The notes below the pieces were generated by a model. That model was given only the letters and a program-made list of their open reading frames with translations. It did not search any database and was not told the origin of the DNA. Below, piece by piece: positions 1,390 through 7,432 of a stretch of DNA of 44,482 nucleotides (position 1 is the first letter of the stretch; the number at the start of each line of letters is the position of its first letter). The DNA comes from Escherichia phage EcoPhCCP1. The stretch is taken from the sequence record PQ384582.1. One strand, written 5' to 3'. The position numbers were made by a program, and so were the translations under genes.

Positions 1390-1584
1390 TCACCCCACTA
1401 TCTCATCACCAAGCCACGCCGTTTCTCGTATATCGTCAACCACACAGGCGGCGTGTTCGCGGCTAATTGCAAAAATGTAGAAGCTGAACTTCTTCCCGTC
1501 GGCGTCGATGTGGTTAACCGAGTAAGGTTTCCACAGGACGCCATCAATAACTACCGGCTTAGGCGACTCCATACGCTTTACCAC
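1390..1584 (-). CDS. hypothetical protein
   Basis: ORF track; tiles with flanking minus-strand ORFs. Confidence 0.4.
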   Translation of the reverse strand: MVKRMESPKPVVIDGVLWKPYSVNHIDADGKKFSFYIFAISREHAACVVDDIRETAWLGDEIVG

Positions 1585-1804
1585 ATTTAACGCATGTCAC
1601 TCGATGTTCCCCATCAAAATGTATGTAGTAGTCGTGCTCGCAAGGCTTTTCATCCGCTTTCAACTTATCAAGAAGCAACTTAAACGCCTCCAGTTGAAAC
1701 TCACCGTTGATAGACAGTTGCCCGCCTAACGTCTGTTTCTCCGACTCAAGCACCAGAATACGGCGCTCGAGTGATGCGATTGTGATTTTAGGCATTGCCA
1801 TCAC
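1559..1804 (-). CDS. hypothetical protein with C-terminal zinc-ribbon-like tail
   Basis: C-terminus CEHDYYIHFDGEHRVTCVKCG matches the CxH...CxKCG tail seen in two other ORFs. Confidence 0.45.
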   Translation of the reverse strand: MMAMPKITIASLERRILVLESEKQTLGGQLSINGEFQLEAFKLLLDKLKADEKPCEHDYYIHFDGEHRVTCVKCGKAYGVA

Positions 1805-2737: not shown

Positions 2738-2922
2738 TAAAACTGGAGAGCAGAGGGATGGAACAGGAGGTGATTTAAGTATCGTCGGATTAGTCTTAGG
2801 TGTCAACAGAGATTCTCCGGCACGCGTTACCGCACTTTGGCCCGACCTTGTTACAGGTCCGCGAGGGTGATGATACCCGGAGTGCCCTCAATGTTGTTTA
2901 ATCTTCTGTTGCCGTTAGTCTA

Positions 2923-3411
2923 TCAACCTTTAACCGCGCGTCCAATAGCCTCCGCCTCCTGCCACGGTTTGCCGTCGAACAGCGCCAGACGTCCTGCTGT
3001 ACGGCGACGCAGGCCGAGTAATGGCTTGCCATTCTGGTTGATGAACAACGCCAGCTTAGCCCGCAGCGTCGCAATATCGCCAGAACGCAGCGCCTTGCCC
3101 GTGCCAGTAGTAGCCGCAATCACGCCAGCACCCGCGTTATAGACCAGGTCACACACTGCATCGAACTGCGCCTGTGTCAATGAATAGTGTGCTGCCGCAT
3201 CAACCGCAGCTACAGCCTTAGCCATATCGCGATTCAGTAACAGCAAGCCTTGTCCAGGGGTGATGGTCTTACCCGGTGTTACGTCTGGACCGTAATGCCC
3301 GTAGCCTATGGTAAGGTACTTCTCGTTTGATGTAGCGCGGTACGCAGTTCCGCGGAATCCCTCAAACGCGGCACAGAAATGCAATCCATTATCTGAAATG
3401 TTTCGAGACAC
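2923..3411 (-). CDS. endolysin (GH24 T4-type lysozyme)
   Basis: Lysozyme motif FEGFRGTAYR...TIGYGH near the N-terminus; adjacent to holin-like genes. Confidence 0.8.
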   Translation of the reverse strand: MSRNISDNGLHFCAAFEGFRGTAYRATSNEKYLTIGYGHYGPDVTPGKTITPGQGLLLLNRDMAKAVAAVDAAAHYSLTQAQFDAVCDLVYNAGAGVIAATTGTGKALRSGDIATLRAKLALFINQNGKPLLGLRRRTAGRLALFDGKPWQEAEAIGRAVKG

Positions 3412-3661
3412 GCTTATGCCCTCCGTATGACAACCACGCCTGGCGAATCTGACGCAGCGCGACTAATGTGATTAACGTCTCAGGCAGCGTCGGCGACACG
3501 CTGCCCTGTAACAGGTGGATACATCCGGCGGCGCAGACGATAGCGGTCAGGATATAGAGCACCCGACCAAATAGCCCGTCGTCCACGCTGGAGTGGTATA
3601 CGTTAAACAGCGATGTGCCCCCGATTGCGAGCATACCGCCAAACCAGAATAACTCATTCAT
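3389..3661 (-). CDS. lysis-associated membrane protein (holin/antiholin-like)
   Basis: Start at internal ATG 3659-3661 (MNELFWFGG...) with GAGG SD; two hydrophobic segments; ATGAATGA junction with upstream gene. Confidence 0.45.
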   Translation of the reverse strand: MNELFWFGGMLAIGGTSLFNVYHSSVDDGLFGRVLYILTAIVCAAGCIHLLQGSVSPTLPETLITLVALRQIRQAWLSYGGHKRVSKHFR

Positions 3662-3962
3662 TGCCACCTCCGCGACGTGCGATGTATTCTCCGGCGACAA
3701 TGCCAGAGAGACGGGAATAAATCGGCATCCAGAGAATAGCAATGATGAACCCAAGGCCCGCTATTTCGCGTTCACCCGCGATACCGAACCATTGAGCGGC
3801 AAGAGGCGCGCCAAATACGGCGCACGCAAAGCCAGTGGCGAGAAAACATAGAGCATCGACAGGGCCGGTAATAGTGGCTTTATGTTGCCGTAGCCCGATT
3901 ACCCCGCCAGCTAGTGCGGCAGCCAGAAGCCAGCCTGTCACAGTTTCAGTAAATTTATCCAA
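3654..3962 (-). CDS. holin (three predicted TM segments)
   Basis: Three hydrophobic segments and a charged C-terminus; start proposed at TTG 3960-3962, 6 nt after GGAGGA (track ORF extends to 4094). Confidence 0.55.
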   Translation of the reverse strand: MDKFTETVTGWLLAAALAGGVIGLRQHKATITGPVDALCFLATGFACAVFGAPLAAQWFGIAGEREIAGLGFIIAILWMPIYSRLSGIVAGEYIARRGGGNE

Positions 3963-4014
3963 GATGAATCCTCCAGGTGCGTATTTAGTATGCTGTACCC
4001 GGAGGATACCACGG

Positions 4015-4182
4015 TTAGGAATTATCCGAATATCTCTTATTCCAATATTCAGCCAGTCGTTGCGCCGGTGTCTTCCGGCGCTCATGTAATTCAAGGTACG
4101 TCGGATGCGCGTTGAAATGTCTTTTACGTGGTGACAGCGGCGCTTTGCCGCTGTGTTTCAGGATGTCAGTTGCAAGTGTCAT
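4015..4182 (-). CDS. small basic protein (hypothetical)
   Basis: Start at internal ATG 4180-4182 (MTLATDIL...), ATGA overlap with upstream micro-ORF. Confidence 0.35.
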   Translation of the reverse strand: MTLATDILKHSGKAPLSPRKRHFNAHPTYLELHERRKTPAQRLAEYWNKRYSDNS

Positions 4183-4352
4183 TCCACCCCTTCCACATGT
4201 GTAACTGACCCACAGTTTGCGCACTCGACGTAATCCGGGAACTGGTCTTTGTATTTCTGTAACTCGGCTTCGAGTTTCACGTAGTCTTCGTACTCTACAA
4301 ATACTCCTACGTCATCAGGTTCTCTCGTATAATAGTTATATCTCTGTACCAT
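4179..4352 (-). CDS. hypothetical protein (57 aa, below ORF-track cutoff)
   Basis: Translated by hand: MVQRYNYYTREPDD...YVECANCGSVTHVEGVE; AGGAGA SD upstream. Confidence 0.4.
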   Translation of the reverse strand: MVQRYNYYTREPDDVGVFVEYEDYVKLEAELQKYKDQFPDYVECANCGSVTHVEGVE

Positions 4353-4353
4353 C

Positions 4354-4572
4354 TTATTTCTCCTGCTTAGCTAATCGTTTCGTTGAACATGTTGCGCGCA
4401 CCTCGGTATCAATTGGCTTATCCTGAAACAGGAAGTGCGTATTCTCTGCGTTGCGTGCCGCAGCCTGGCACGCCTCCATCGAATAAAACGTTTCGGATGC
4501 CGCCAGTTGCATCTGGCCTGCGGTCAACACCCAGATAAATAAGATGCTGGTCATTCGGTTATCCATCCACAT
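4354..4572 (-). CDS. small protein with N-terminal signal/TM segment
   Basis: MTSILFIWVLTAGQ...ACQAAA resembles MTWILFIIVASYQ...ACETAA of 1958..2137; start ambiguous. Confidence 0.45.
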   Translation of the reverse strand: MWMDNRMTSILFIWVLTAGQMQLAASETFYSMEACQAAARNAENTHFLFQDKPIDTEVRATCSTKRLAKQEK

Positions 4573-5024
4573 TTAATACAATGACGGTGTGCCCCGCTTT
4601 CAGGGTATATGTATTCAAAGTCGTGGCAGCACTCCTGCACATCTTCCTTACGGCAACCAGATTGCTCAGTGTTGGCTTCGCTTTTCCCAAGCGCGGCTAA
4701 CATCGAGTCATAAAACGCAACCTTAAGGATATTAAATTGCGCACCGTTAATAGGGCCTTTAGCCACTAAAGCATCATGTAATTTCCACGCGGCAGAGTTA
4801 ACGCTAGGACTCGCCTTAGATGGAATAGAAACACCTTTCTGCAACTCCTTAATCTGCGCCGAAGCATCACGTAACTGATTCTTGAGTGACAACACCTCGT
4901 GCGCCAGGTCTTCGCACTGTTGCTTGTATGGGTTGTTAGTTAACTGCTGCCGTAGTTGGTTAAGCAGGAACTCGATTACTTCGTTTTTGTTACTCATATT
5001 ATGTACTCCACCTTTTCTCCGCAT
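4551..5024 (-). CDS. coiled-coil protein with C-terminal zinc-ribbon-like tail
   Basis: C-terminus CHDFEYIYPESGAHRHCIKCG; likely start at internal MSNKNEV. Confidence 0.45.
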   Translation of the reverse strand: MRRKGGVHNMSNKNEVIEFLLNQLRQQLTNNPYKQQCEDLAHEVLSLKNQLRDASAQIKELQKGVSIPSKASPSVNSAAWKLHDALVAKGPINGAQFNILKVAFYDSMLAALGKSEANTEQSGCRKEDVQECCHDFEYIYPESGAHRHCIKCGWITE

Positions 5025-5305
5025 TTACTACACGTATACAGCTTGCCGGTTGTATGCTCTGCAAAGTCGACAATCACCCGATGCTCACATTCTTCCACTT
5101 CCGGGGGTTCCGGAATCTCCATCGGCATCCAGTGTGTCGCGTCTTTTATGACAAACTGGCATTCATCGTCGGAGAACCCTTTTTGACTCCGCGAGTACGC
5201 GACACCGTGAACTACGCCGTGTGTAGGCGAGAACACCCATAAATCATAATCGTACTCTTCTGGTAATTTCTCGGAGCATTTAACCCACGCACCATTAGTA
5301 TTCAT
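4994..5305 (-). CDS. DUF551-like protein with C-terminal zinc-ribbon-like tail
   Basis: N-terminal W.KCSEKLP...HWMPMEIPEPPEV (DUF551-like) and C-terminal CEHRVIVDFAEHTTGKLYTCSKCG. Confidence 0.5.
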   Translation of the reverse strand: MNTNGAWVKCSEKLPEEYDYDLWVFSPTHGVVHGVAYSRSQKGFSDDECQFVIKDATHWMPMEIPEPPEVEECEHRVIVDFAEHTTGKLYTCSKCGEKVEYII

Positions 5306-5423
5306 ATTCTTCGCTCACCCCGTTATAGACGCCGTTGTAATCTCCGTCGCAGATGAACGGGTAGAGCATATCTTCGTACTCGTCCTGCAACTCGCCTAAA
5401 GTTACTTCGCTATAATCTTTCAT
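5295..5423 (-). CDS. hypothetical acidic protein (42 aa, below cutoff)
   Basis: Translated by hand: MKDYSEVTLGELQDEYEDMLYPFICDGDYNGVYNGVSEEYEY; AGAGGAGAG SD; first ORF after promoter 5454-5482. Confidence 0.4.
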   Translation of the reverse strand: MKDYSEVTLGELQDEYEDMLYPFICDGDYNGVYNGVSEEYEY

Positions 5424-5453
5424 CTCTGTCTCTCCTCTCGTTTGTGTAAATGA

Positions 5454-5482
5454 ATAGTAGCCTATTCTATCTTAGTGTGCAA
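5454..5482 (-). promoter_or_regulatory. phage promoter family member TTGCAC-N17-TACTAT (minus strand)
   Basis: Same architecture as 6830-6858, 29301-29329 and 39188-39216. Confidence 0.5.
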
Positions 5483-5489
5483 GTAAATT

Positions 5490-5660
5490 TTATTGGTGTT
5501 TTAAAGATAATCGTTCACTGCGAATCCAGTAGTACCTCGGGCGTCGTGCCCACTGACGCCATCGCATAACACGGTACTTGTTGCCGTCTGACGCAACAAT
5601 AAGCCCGAATCGCTTTTCTCCGTTTCTACCAGTCCAGGTTACGATGTCATTCAGTTTCAT
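5490..5660 (-). CDS. hypothetical basic protein (56 aa, below cutoff)
   Basis: Translated by hand: MKLNDIVTWTGRNGEKRFGLIVASDGNKYRVMRWRQW...; GGAG upstream. Confidence 0.3.
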   Translation of the reverse strand: MKLNDIVTWTGRNGEKRFGLIVASDGNKYRVMRWRQWARRPRYYWIRSERLSLKHQ

Positions 5661-5794
5661 TGTCGCATCTCCCGCAATAGTCGCTTCGATTGTTTCGTTT
5701 GGTGGAAGTGTCGCTTTTTGACGACACTAATCTAAAGTTGTACGCTGCTGTGTAGCAGCGTAAGTCACTCAGTAAAATCCCAAACTATTGAACA

Positions 5795-6004
5795 TCACAC
5801 TTCCGGCGGCTCGGGTAACGGCATCCAGTGCGTGGGTTTCCACGAAGCCCCAGGAATTAGCCACCCATCATCAGCGTCAGGATGACCGGGGATATAAGTA
5901 GCCCACTTCATCCGCCAATCGCCTTTATGTCCAAACTCTGTAGCTACAAGAACGCCTGTCATTTTCGGCGGCATCCGCTCACTACACTTAATCCACTTAC
6001 ACAT
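5795..6004 (-). CDS. DUF551-like protein
   Basis: MCKWIKCSERMPP...PTHWMPLPEPPEV parallels the N-terminus of 4994..5305. Confidence 0.5.
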   Translation of the reverse strand: MCKWIKCSERMPPKMTGVLVATEFGHKGDWRMKWATYIPGHPDADDGWLIPGASWKPTHWMPLPEPPEV

Positions 6005-6173
6005 ATCTCACACCTCTTTCAATCAAGGATTGCACACCAGCTTTCCACGCCCGCCACGCGAGACGCGTCTTAACGTTCAGGTACTCTTTCTTTGAACCCT
6101 TGTTAACCTGCAGACCCTCGACGACGGCCCACCGTTCAAATGCTTCTCTCAAAATAAAGGTGCGGCTATTCAT
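5997..6173 (-). CDS. hypothetical protein (58 aa, below cutoff)
   Basis: Translated by hand: MNSRTFILREAFERWAVVEGLQVNKG...; start overlaps the stop of 6166..6411. Confidence 0.3.
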   Translation of the reverse strand: MNSRTFILREAFERWAVVEGLQVNKGSKKEYLNVKTRLAWRAWKAGVQSLIERGVRYV

Positions 6174-6411
6174 AACTAATAACTCCGATAACTTTAGATT
6201 TCTCGCGCCGGGTGCAACCGTGTTCGATGTAGTAACGCGCCTGCTTAACGCTTTCGCAACGGGTCAGAGTAACCCACCAGAAAAACCCGACCCGCATCTG
6301 CACGGCAGGTGTAATTCGTTTCTCCCCGAAGGCGGTAACCCACTCTTCGCTAACTATGCGGTATTTACTTAACACGGCAACCTCCCTCAGAGTCGTCGGC
6401 ACGAGCATCAT
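6166..6411 (-). CDS. hypothetical protein
   Basis: ORF track; tiles in minus-strand operon. Confidence 0.4.
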   Translation of the reverse strand: MMLVPTTLREVAVLSKYRIVSEEWVTAFGEKRITPAVQMRVGFFWWVTLTRCESVKQARYYIEHGCTRREKSKVIGVISYE

Positions 6412-6607
6412 GATTCGATGCCGTTGTGTATATTTCCGCTTCGGCCTTAGTTACTGGCACTTTGTAATGCCTGACCTTAATCCACCAGCCACCCTCACAG
6501 GAATCCAGTACATCGAAAATATCACCAATGTTTACGCCTATGTTTTCCAGAGTATCGTTAGTTGTTTCGTAGGTAACGGTGTTATCTGTAATTATGATTT
6601 GCATCAC
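6365..6607 (-). CDS. hypothetical acidic protein
   Basis: ORF track; start likely second Met (6604). Confidence 0.4.
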   Translation of the reverse strand: MMQIIITDNTVTYETTNDTLENIGVNIGDIFDVLDSCEGGWWIKVRHYKVPVTKAEAEIYTTASNHDARADDSEGGCRVK

Positions 6608-6804
6608 TTCTCCCCTTTGAATTTAAAATTGTTGCCAATGAGTTTTATCTCATTTGGCCGGCAATAGTATGCTGTTGATAACCCATCTCCGCATAGAGAA
6701 CGGATGATATAAGCCCCTGGATATACGGTAGACTCTTTTTCAACAACCCCATATATGCTGGCTTTCGTTTTCACCAACTGACCCTTCTTAAACATAACCC
6801 TCAC
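6604..6804 (-). CDS. hypothetical protein
   Basis: ORF track; AGGAG SD 8 nt before internal ATG (MFKKGQ...); first gene after promoter 6830-6858. Confidence 0.45.
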   Translation of the reverse strand: MRVMFKKGQLVKTKASIYGVVEKESTVYPGAYIIRSLCGDGLSTAYYCRPNEIKLIGNNFKFKGEK

Positions 6805-6829
6805 TCCTCTGTCTCGTTTCGATAAGTGA

Positions 6830-6858
6830 ATAGTATCCTATTATGTTGGGGTGTGCAA
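6830..6858 (-). promoter_or_regulatory. phage promoter family member TTGCAC-N17-TACTAT (minus strand)
   Basis: Reverse complement of 6826-6858 matches the 32-bp promoter at 29301 and 39188 with 2 mismatches. Confidence 0.55.
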
Positions 6859-6904
6859 GAGATTAGTTACGTTGCCGTTGTGATTCTTTCGTGTAATAGG
6901 ATAG

Positions 6905-6940
6905 CGAGCGAAACGAAACGAACGTGGTGCCGAAGGCACC
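6905..6940 (-). terminator. terminator-like hairpin (minus strand) ending repeat element copy 1
   Basis: GGUGC-C(UUCG)G-GCACC hairpin on the minus-strand RNA, followed by ACGUUCGUUUCGUUUCG. Confidence 0.35.
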
Positions 6941-7010
6941 AAGAGTGAGTGAGTGAGCTTGCGGTTCTGACCTACGGCAAATCAGTAACTTATATACTTA
7001 GGCGGGAATT

Positions 7011-7156
7011 ACAATAGACTATGGCCCTTCCGAATGCGCCAGCGAGACTCACTCCACACGTCGAGACGTGCTCGTTTCGCCTGCCGCGCACCGCGGTCGC
7101 TTGTTCATACTTCACAAGCTCAGGTCGAGCTTAGCATATTTCTTAGTAAAAGTCAA
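7011..7156. repeat. non-coding repeat element, copy 1 (paralog of 38980-39121)
   Basis: Direct alignment: about 80% identity overall with a 45-bp near-identical core (CGCGGTCGCTTGTTCATACTTCACAAGCTCAGGT.GAGCTTAGCA). Confidence 0.85.
7128..7156 (-). promoter_or_regulatory. promoter-like module in repeat copy 1: TTGACT-N17(TGn)-TAAGCT (minus strand)
   Basis: -35 TTGACT (7156-7151), 17-nt spacer, extended -10 TGcTAAGCT (to 7128); conserved in copy 2. Confidence 0.4.
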
Positions 7157-7203
7157 TACCTGTAGCATCTTTTGTATCTTAGTAACTTTGTGTGGTGTTT
7201 TGG

Positions 7204-7232
7204 TTGCTTTTACAAAGTTACCGCCTTATACT
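7204..7232 (+). promoter_or_regulatory. sigma70-like promoter TTGCTT-N17-TATACT for the plus-strand replication operon
   Basis: Hexamers at 7204-7209 and 7227-7232; GGAG SD and ATG 7262 downstream. Confidence 0.4.
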
Positions 7233-7261
7233 TCGGTACATCTTACATAGGAGAACGTGAA

Positions 7262-7432
7262 ATGACTATCAATGAAGTAGCTGAACGTATTGGGGTGACG
7301 CGCCAGACAATTAATAACTGGATTAAGAGTGGAAAGTTTCCTGATTGCAGCGTTAAAGTAATGGGTCGCCGGATGCCGGGGACATTTGACCGTAATAAAG
7401 TTGAAGCGTGGATTAAGGAGAACGTGAAATGA
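7262..7432 (+). CDS. HTH DNA-binding protein (AlpA/Xis/MerR-like)
   Basis: Internal ATG 7262 with GGAG SD; MTINEVAERIGVTRQTINNWIKSGKFP is a typical HTH. Confidence 0.6.
   Translation: MTINEVAERIGVTRQTINNWIKSGKFPDCSVKVMGRRMPGTFDRNKVEAWIKENVK

Follow-up and report, generated by a model that had tools for sequence, protein, structure and literature searches.

Escherichia phage EcoPhCCP1 (sequence record PQ384582.1; 44,482 nt, analysed in full and referred to below as the window) encodes two small proteins with a domain of unknown function, DUF551 (PF04448). Their open reading frames, ORF A and ORF B (Table 1), belong to a series of small overlapping genes on the minus strand, which is read leftward from approximately position 6800 and reaches the holin and endolysin genes at approximately 2900–4100. 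Judged from patchy, mosaic nucleotide matches to Kagunavirus and Jerseyvirus phages of E. coli and Salmonella, and from a 22-kb stretch of structural and replication genes with approximately 89% identity to Escherichia phage VB_EcoS-Golestan (77% coverage), the window is essentially the genome of a lytic Guernseyvirinae siphophage of the Kagunavirus type. Both ORFs are preceded by a Shine-Dalgarno-like sequence. The start of ORF A overlaps the 42-aa gene before it by 11 nt, that of ORF B overlaps a 58-aa gene by 8 nt (ATGTGTAA), and in the sequence ATGA at 4994..4997 the stop codon of ORF A overlaps the start of the next gene.

An earlier note on this DNA, made by reading the letters without database searches, had described the two ORFs as DUF551-like copies with the common motifs W.KCSE(K/R)(L/M)P and HWMP. 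We found both ORFs on the minus strand and could read these motifs in each of them, as WVKCSEKLP...THWMPMEIPEPPEV in ORF A and WIKCSERMP...THWMPLPEPPEV in ORF B. A single BLASTP comparison of the two proteins gave 23 identities in 68 residues (34%, E = 1e-8). Both proteins also match the PF04448 profile over all of its 68 positions and above the gathering threshold of 22 bits, ORF A with residues 6–69 (39.4 bits) and ORF B with residues 3–68 (73.0 bits). The DUF551 signature, which opens the domain with W-x-x-C/V-S-E/D-x-x-P and closes it with T-H-W-x-P-x-P-x-P-P, is present in both, and an alignment with 11 relatives revealed eight invariant residues (W7, C10, S11, P15, H58, W59, P65, and P68, ORF A numbering). 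The same PHROG families (924, 60, and 7704, function not annotated) are matched by both proteins. When the entire window, translated in six frames, was searched with a hidden Markov model (HMM) built from DUF551 sequences, ORF A and ORF B were the only matches. The family itself is broad: 6,780 of 8,000 scored candidates match the profile at E ≤ 0.001.

The two proteins differ in charge. ORF A is strongly acidic (isoelectric point 4.8, net charge approximately −10), and ORF B is near neutral (isoelectric point 6.8). The AlphaFold2 (AF2) model of ORF B is beta-rich with a mean confidence score (pLDDT) of 76; the model of ORF A, computed from a 20-sequence alignment with homologues that form approximately 10 clusters at 80% identity, reached a pLDDT of 45. 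The sole DUF551 match in BFVD was weak (TM 0.42, E = 0.33), a PDB profile search with the DUF551 alignment returned nothing meaningful, and neither PADLOC nor NCBIfam contained a match for ORF A or ORF B. We also considered a metal site within the DUF551 domain, formed by C10 and H58, and rejected it because the cysteine is not conserved in the distant members P0217, P0249, and P0285.

Table 1. Positions in the window of the two DUF551 genes, their parts, and related or adjoining genes
Feature	Position	Strand	Description
ORF A	4994..5305	−	103 aa; A-type DUF551 domain and zinc-ribbon tail; PF04448 39.4 bits
DUF551 domain of ORF A (residues 6–69)	5099..5290	−	A-type core EEYDYDLWVFSPTHGVVHGVAYSRSQKGFSDDECQFVIKDA
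Zinc-ribbon tail of ORF A (residues 71–103)	4997..5095	−	C73-E-H75...C92-S-K-C95-G, read from the DNA
Putative ligands of the ORF A tail	C73 5087–5089; H75 5081–5083; C92 5030–5032; C95 5021–5023	−	invariant in orthologues
Indel making up ORF A, first codons apart	4998..5294	−	297 bp; homology to loci without ORF A begins at 5295
42-aa gene upstream of ORF A	5295..5423	−	phrog_35344 (E = 7e-32); last codons overlap the start of ORF A
Downstream coiled-coil protein	4551..4997	−	148 aa; one zinc-ribbon unit QECCHDFEYIYPESGAHRHCIKCG at 4554..4637; ATGA-coupled to ORF A
ORF B	5795..6004	−	69 aa; stand-alone DUF551, window-type core PKMTGVLVATEFGHKGDWRMKWATYIPGHPDADDGWLIPGASWKP; PF04448 73.0 bits
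Slot-B 5' boundary	5969..5995	−	codons of WIKCSERMP, TGGATTAAGTGTAGTGAGCGGATGCCG; homology resumes at 5969–5970
Exchangeable core of ORF B	5834..5968	−	homology gap between 5829–5833 and 5969–5970
Slot-B 3' boundary	5798..5833	−	codons of THWMPLPEPPEV; conserved as protein, codons variable
58-aa gene upstream of ORF B	5997..6173	−	phrog_15836; overlaps the start of ORF B by 8 nt
Second coiled-coil protein	1559..1804	−	81 aa; coiled coil and tail PCEHDYYIHFDGEHRVTCVKCG; phrog_9023; found by motif scan

ORF B occupies a position, here called slot B, that is present in most Guernseyvirinae and at which related phages encode DUF551 proteins with exchangeable cores. We gathered 38 related IMG/VR loci by way of the neighboring coiled-coil gene and took 30 slot-B genes from all fetched loci. 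A DUF551 gene is present in 29 of the 38 loci, and the 30 slot-B genes have at least nine quite different cores between the same two ends. Comparison by blastn with phages that have other cores brackets the core of ORF B exactly, since homology stops and resumes at its two borders (Table 1). The two ends are conserved in different ways. The 27 nt that encode WIKCSERMP are near-identical, synonymous sites included, in approximately 30 phages with at least nine cores, whereas the C-terminal motif THWMPLPEPP is kept as protein and its codons vary freely. Why the synonymous sites of the 27-nt block are conserved might be explained by recombination at this site, by a requirement of translation initiation, or by a recent gene conversion event.

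ORF A, by comparison, is an extra gene found in a minority of relatives. In the loci L009 and L041 there is no ORF A, and the stop codon of the 42-aa gene directly overlaps the coiled-coil gene's start; the insertion reuses this start context and gives the gene that follows a new start, coupled through ATGA. Among GenBank phages only hz69 carries ORF A (89%), as does one of the 38 IMG/VR loci. The same architecture is found in the orthologues from hz69, L005, L006, and L020. The 90% cluster of ORF A holds 35 member sequences from contigs of 41–45 kb, and a protein identical to ORF A (P0291) is encoded on 12 contigs. Every locus that has ORF A and also spans the slot contains a slot-B copy as well. 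The rarity of ORF A and the existence of frameshifted or truncated versions (P0227) might suggest that it is a chimera in decay, or an artefact of annotation, and has no function. This explanation is extremely improbable in view of the pairwise ratios of nonsynonymous to synonymous substitution rates (dN/dS), which are 0.07–0.25 for the whole of ORF A, 0.03–0.14 for the domain, and 0.2–0.6 for the short tail. In addition, all orthologues keep the four putative ligands of the tail despite synonymous divergence (dS) of up to 0.66, and ORF A is translationally coupled to both of its neighbors. By these substitution patterns ORF A is a real gene under purifying selection.

How did two DUF551 genes come to lie in one genome? 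The earlier note had interpreted them as products of duplication and divergence. In the sense of a duplication within this genome this claim is not supported, because each copy is closer to Ea22-like proteins of lambdoid prophages than to its neighbor. The DUF551 domain of ORF A is 55–60% identical to the C-terminal domains of Ea22-like prophage proteins of 150–310 aa (P0210–P0215), compared with 34% identity to ORF B and at most 39% to approximately 30 Guernseyvirinae slot-B proteins. An exhaustive phmmer search with ORF A against 1.84 billion cluster representatives returned 80 matches, headed, after ORF A's own cluster, by the same prophage proteins, the matches of which all stop at approximately residue 71 of ORF A. 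The first 58 residues of ORF A are also 57% identical to a DUF551 protein encoded beside the integrase of Shiga toxin 2 (Stx2) prophages (Stx2a_WGPS8 gp04). ORF B is 83% identical to E. coli prophage proteins named ead/Ea22-like (P0133 and others), whereas its identity to slot-B proteins that have a different core does not exceed 42%. A tblastn search with this protein retrieved 455 phage records, mostly from Guernseyvirinae and Stx phages, and ORF B represents the usual DUF551 gene of Guernseyvirinae.

The two core types can follow a common leader. In Stx2a_WGPS8 gp04 and in P0019, a protein from E. coli, this leader is 87% identical over 61 residues, through the motif WISCSERMP. Past this motif one of the two proteins continues with an A-type and the other with a B-type core, between which we could detect no similarity. 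Since one leader occurs with either core, and since the nearer relatives of both are found in prophages, these comparisons identify the A-type and B-type cores as old alternative alleles of the temperate-phage gene pool, of which the window phage has one each.

A scenario in which a single DUF551 gene was duplicated in tandem and in situ, after which the copies diverged and one of them was fused to a tail, would agree with the arrangement of the two genes approximately 500 bp apart, on the same strand and in the same operon, and with the terminal motifs that they have in common at both ends. The relative L010, which has two untailed DUF551 genes near each other, could also be cited in its favor. 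This scenario is nevertheless very unlikely given the closer prophage relatives of both ORFs. Furthermore, the codons for the shared N-terminal motif differ, with only 17 of 27 nt matching between ORF A and the slot-B block, and ORF A is a clean gene-sized indel that is missing from most relatives. Taken together with the swapped cores, these comparisons lead us to conclude that ORF A and ORF B are ancient paralogues that were united by horizontal exchange and not by local duplication. In L010 (IMG/VR) the two untailed genes, at 2264–2467 and 2957–3142, have different cores; this phage group therefore gained a second DUF551 copy on at least two occasions and in different ways.

The claim that one copy is fused to a zinc-ribbon-type tail was borne out for ORF A, residues 71–103 of which carry the two knuckles C73-E-H75 and C92-S-K-C95-G. 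These four putative ligands are invariant in 17 of 17 orthologue sequences read, and the residue between C73 and H75 is E, D, or A. Similar units occur in the protein encoded directly downstream, a coiled-coil protein that matches phrog_6094 (E = 6e-31) and is recognized by an HMM built from 51 such units from other phages only (tail HMM, E = 1.4e-11). In relatives this protein contains one to three tandem units of the form E-C-x-H-D/N/E-W/Y/F...C-x-K-C-G, often with the repeated linker EQSGCRKED. Number and type of the units vary among otherwise close phages (for example L005 3309–3848, L006 1683–2489, and L028 3501–4052), and L047-type genomes lack the whole coiled-coil gene, which is therefore dispensable. 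A profile–profile comparison (hhalign) of A-type tails with the other units gave a probability of 85% (E = 6e-6, 30 columns), and the knuckle motifs E-E-C-E-H and C-x-K-C-G agree between the ORF A tail and the units.

Two natural recombinants connect the tail of ORF A with these units. The 99-aa protein P0294, encoded by a 44.7-kb genome (L047) seen on four contigs, ends with CSKCGLKK; here, homology to ORF A gives way to homology to the coiled-coil gene's last unit within approximately 15 nt at the second knuckle. The second recombinant, P0002 (L004), is identical to the ORF A protein through E-C-E-H, with a crossover in the 12 nt that encode ECEH, and its tail matches one from Salmonella phage BPS11T2 with 100% identity. 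Based on these alignments the ORF A tail probably belongs, as a divergent member, to the unit family of the coiled-coil proteins, and the units probably serve as recombination points. ORF A as a whole is, by its sequence relationships, a chimera of an A-type DUF551 core joined in frame to a zinc-ribbon unit of the coiled-coil-protein kind.

From this evidence we consider it likely that the two ORFs are DUF551 members from different branches of the family, with ORF B in a cassette slot and ORF A as a chimeric insertion, and we infer that both products are host-binding modules. Several points weigh against this interpretation. The transfer between lytic phages and prophages may have run in either direction, and zinc binding by the ORF A tail is putative. 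The tail HMM gave E = 6.7 for the ORF A tail, with the match split into the two knuckles, and in a comparison with 2000 shuffles the tail ranked third of 2001. Finally, L004 is a 1.3-kb contig with approximately 1-fold coverage that could be a chimera; P0002 is therefore taken as supporting evidence only. Because the tail HMM misses this tail, its homology rests on the profile–profile score and on the recombinants. The result of the tail HMM would be easier to understand if the tail were an unrelated, convergent pair of zinc knuckles, since the motifs C-x-H and C-x-x-C-G are simple. Convergence would also agree with a tblastn search in which the ORF A tail alone retrieved only hz69, with the longer hairpin of this tail, and with its lack of the aromatic residue that follows H-D/E/N in other units. 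It fits poorly with the hhalign score, with two in-frame recombinants that join the tail to the neighbor's last unit exactly at a knuckle, and with the position of the tail next to the array-bearing gene. We judge a convergent origin unlikely and retain descent from the coiled-coil-protein units as the better explanation.

The combination of DUF551 with a zinc-ribbon-type C-terminus recurs in two other proteins, P0263 (KCDHD...CVKC) and P0223 from Enterobacter kobei, the Cys-rich end of which is of another kind; the tail of P0263 was not recognized by the tail HMM. Searches of the ORF A tail against known zinc-binding families returned only weak matches. A PDB profile search with the tail alignment found only generic zinc ribbons (E ~0.003–0.1), the TFIIB-type zinc ribbon PF08271 (Zn_Ribbon_TF) matched ORF A with 14.1 bits (E = 0.034) and thus below its 29-bit threshold, and among Lar-like restriction alleviation proteins there was no PF14354 match and only a match of residues 71–101 to phrog_6422 with E = 0.017.

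Further units and knuckles were observed elsewhere. The second coiled-coil protein of the window is encoded far from the first, past the lysis genes, and its tail matches phrog_6094 (E = 6e-4) and the tail HMM (E = 2.3e-9). A 57-aa protein encoded at 4179..4352 on the minus strand (phrog_29624) ends in a single C-A-N-C-G knuckle; its match to the Pfam family Lar_restr_allev was below significance (E = 0.066). In the GenBank records of Escherichia phage BEU33 (L008, 1057–1594) and Salmonella phage BPS11T2 (L007, 866–1593) the last unit of the coiled-coil gene is out of frame or forms a separate unannotated ORF, probably as a result of sequencing frameshifts or real truncations.

The 58-aa gene upstream of ORF B has an orthologue in L005 that is recorded as PF26207 (Phage_phiTE_015). 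A 43-kb phage contig encodes a 119-aa protein (P0006) in which the product of this gene is fused in frame to a B-type DUF551 domain; such a fusion hints that the two proteins may act together. The gap of the minus strand that follows ORF B (5661..5794) contains two stable hairpins with no T-run behind them, among them a perfect 9-bp stem (TACGCTGCT/AGCAGCGTA) at 5741..5766. With a folding z-score of −1.9, these hairpins may be a site of RNA processing or attenuation, or they may be meaningless. A scan of positions 3900..7400 for sigma-70 promoters and terminators found fewer promoter-like sites than in shuffled sequences and no minus-strand promoter, and a published Kagunavirus transcriptome offered no usable timing at gene level for the two ORFs. 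Transcription unit and timing are therefore assumed from gene order, and on this assumption the leftward operon would be an early accessory block equivalent to the early-left region of temperate phages. The nearest GenBank phage, VB_EcoS-Golestan, shows only the level of identity given above for the 22-kb segment, and the window genome probably represents a distinct Kagunavirus species.

We turned to the question as to what these proteins may do. In ORF B a variable core is exchanged between an N-terminal end conserved as nucleotide sequence and a C-terminal end conserved as protein, and ORF A adds an A-type core joined in frame to a C-x-H...C-x-x-C unit of a kind that recombines at its zinc-knuckle codons. 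Both products would be small, non-enzymatic binding modules that act early in infection, by the timing assumed from gene position, and are aimed at host proteins. The conserved terminal motifs would build a common scaffold, the variable core would choose the partner in the host or its defences, and the zinc ribbon would provide a second contact or a stabilizing element. This proposal draws on the small size of the proteins and their lack of a catalytic signature, on invariant ends around an exchangeable core, on the frequent coiled-coil stalks of DUF551 proteins in prophages, and on gain and loss among near-identical phages. The different isoelectric points make it probable that ORF A and ORF B have different partners.

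A more specific version of this idea would make the DUF551 proteins counter-defence (anti-immunity) factors, in which exchangeable cores and tails track variable host defence proteins. Hypervariable cores between invariant ends, the variable number of tails, gene gain and loss among near-identical phages, the small and very acidic ORF A, and prophage homologues in the early-left accessory region beside int and Ea22 are all consistent with such a role. This assignment remains doubtful, since neither ORF matches a known anti-defence or defence family and the papers found to mention DUF551 show no link to defence; a function has been reported only for tolerance of oxidative stress and, when YfdQ and YfdR are also present, for the inhibition of DnaA-dependent initiation. 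We keep to the broader description of ORF A and ORF B as putative host-binding modules.

A wider hypothesis, which we put forward as a rather long shot, would unite the DUF551 slot and the zinc-ribbon-unit array as two arms of one recombination-driven scheme that diversifies early host-targeting proteins, with ORF A as a hybrid of both. The 27-nt WIKCSERMP block and the knuckle codons would act as crossover points through which lytic Guernseyvirinae and lambdoid prophages would exchange cores and tails. If this were true, and if the variable parts recognized variable host defence or replication proteins, the result would be a compact modular system for swapping specificity that has not been described before.

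The features seen here are ordinary for phage accessory regions; they reflect mosaicism and not a new system. Public databases already contain the protein sequences, labeled as hypothetical or as DUF551 proteins, and the two ORFs add two members to a large domain-of-unknown-function family in a well-sampled phage group. What they provide is a handle on DUF551, namely a bare 69-aa protein and a 103-aa zinc-ribbon fusion within one small lytic genome, together with natural variants in which the core is swapped, the tail is swapped, or the neighboring gene is deleted. This handle makes the hunt for partners and comparative genetics straightforward. DUF551 is also part of Ea22-like proteins of Shiga-toxin phages, the role of which in the lysis–lysogeny decision lacks explanation.

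Several known systems resemble parts of this locus. With YfdS from the E. coli prophage CPS-53 (PF04448/IPR007539), ORF A and ORF B have in common a match to the full model and both signature motifs. YfdS, like most database members, is extended at its N-terminus, whereas ORF B is a bare domain and ORF A has an added C-terminal zinc ribbon. Mutants in yfdS are sensitive to H2O2; multicopy combinations of YfdQ and YfdR with either YfdS or YfdT inhibit DnaA-dependent initiation, yet YfdR was the only one of these proteins that bound DnaA (PMC4776307). DUF551 has been described as a portable domain, without known mechanism, on variant V2 of Ea22 from Stx phages and on YfdS (PMC10834534), and in the literature that mentions DUF551, PF04448, or IPR007539 we found no mechanism reported.

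The Ea22-like proteins of lambdoid and Stx phages (ead/Ea22, PF13935; variant V2) are the nearest relatives of both cores, the A-type as well as the B-type, and as in slot B their core is swapped right after CSERMP. In temperate phages these DUF551 proteins are accessory genes of the early-left region, next to int. The window proteins have only the DUF551 part in common with them and are without the Ea22 N-terminal and coiled-coil parts; neither ORF matches PF13935, nor is there room for this domain in 69-aa ORF B or in the five residues that precede DUF551 in ORF A. A pro-lysogenic role has been described for Ea22 (PMC10834534), but it cannot apply to ORF A and ORF B since the window phage is lytic.

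Generic zinc ribbons (PF08271, Rpb12/ABC10-alpha, S27e) and Lar-like proteins (phrog_6422, PF14354) resemble the ORF A tail in having two knuckles, a spacer of beta-hairpin length, and a subsequent G. Profiles of the tail family gave weak matches to S27e and Rpb12 (E = 0.003–0.01). Unlike these ribbons, ORF A has C-x-H instead of C-x-x-C in the first knuckle. Because all of these matches are below family thresholds, they indicate a resemblance in fold class only, and not membership. The Guernseyvirinae coiled-coil proteins (phrog_6094 and phrog_9023) share with the ORF A tail the pattern E-C-x-H...C-x-K-C-G, the genomic neighborhood, and recombination. These proteins combine a coiled-coil N-terminus with one to three units, often preceded by the EQSGCRKED linker, whereas ORF A has DUF551 in place of the coiled coil, followed by a divergent unit with a longer hairpin.

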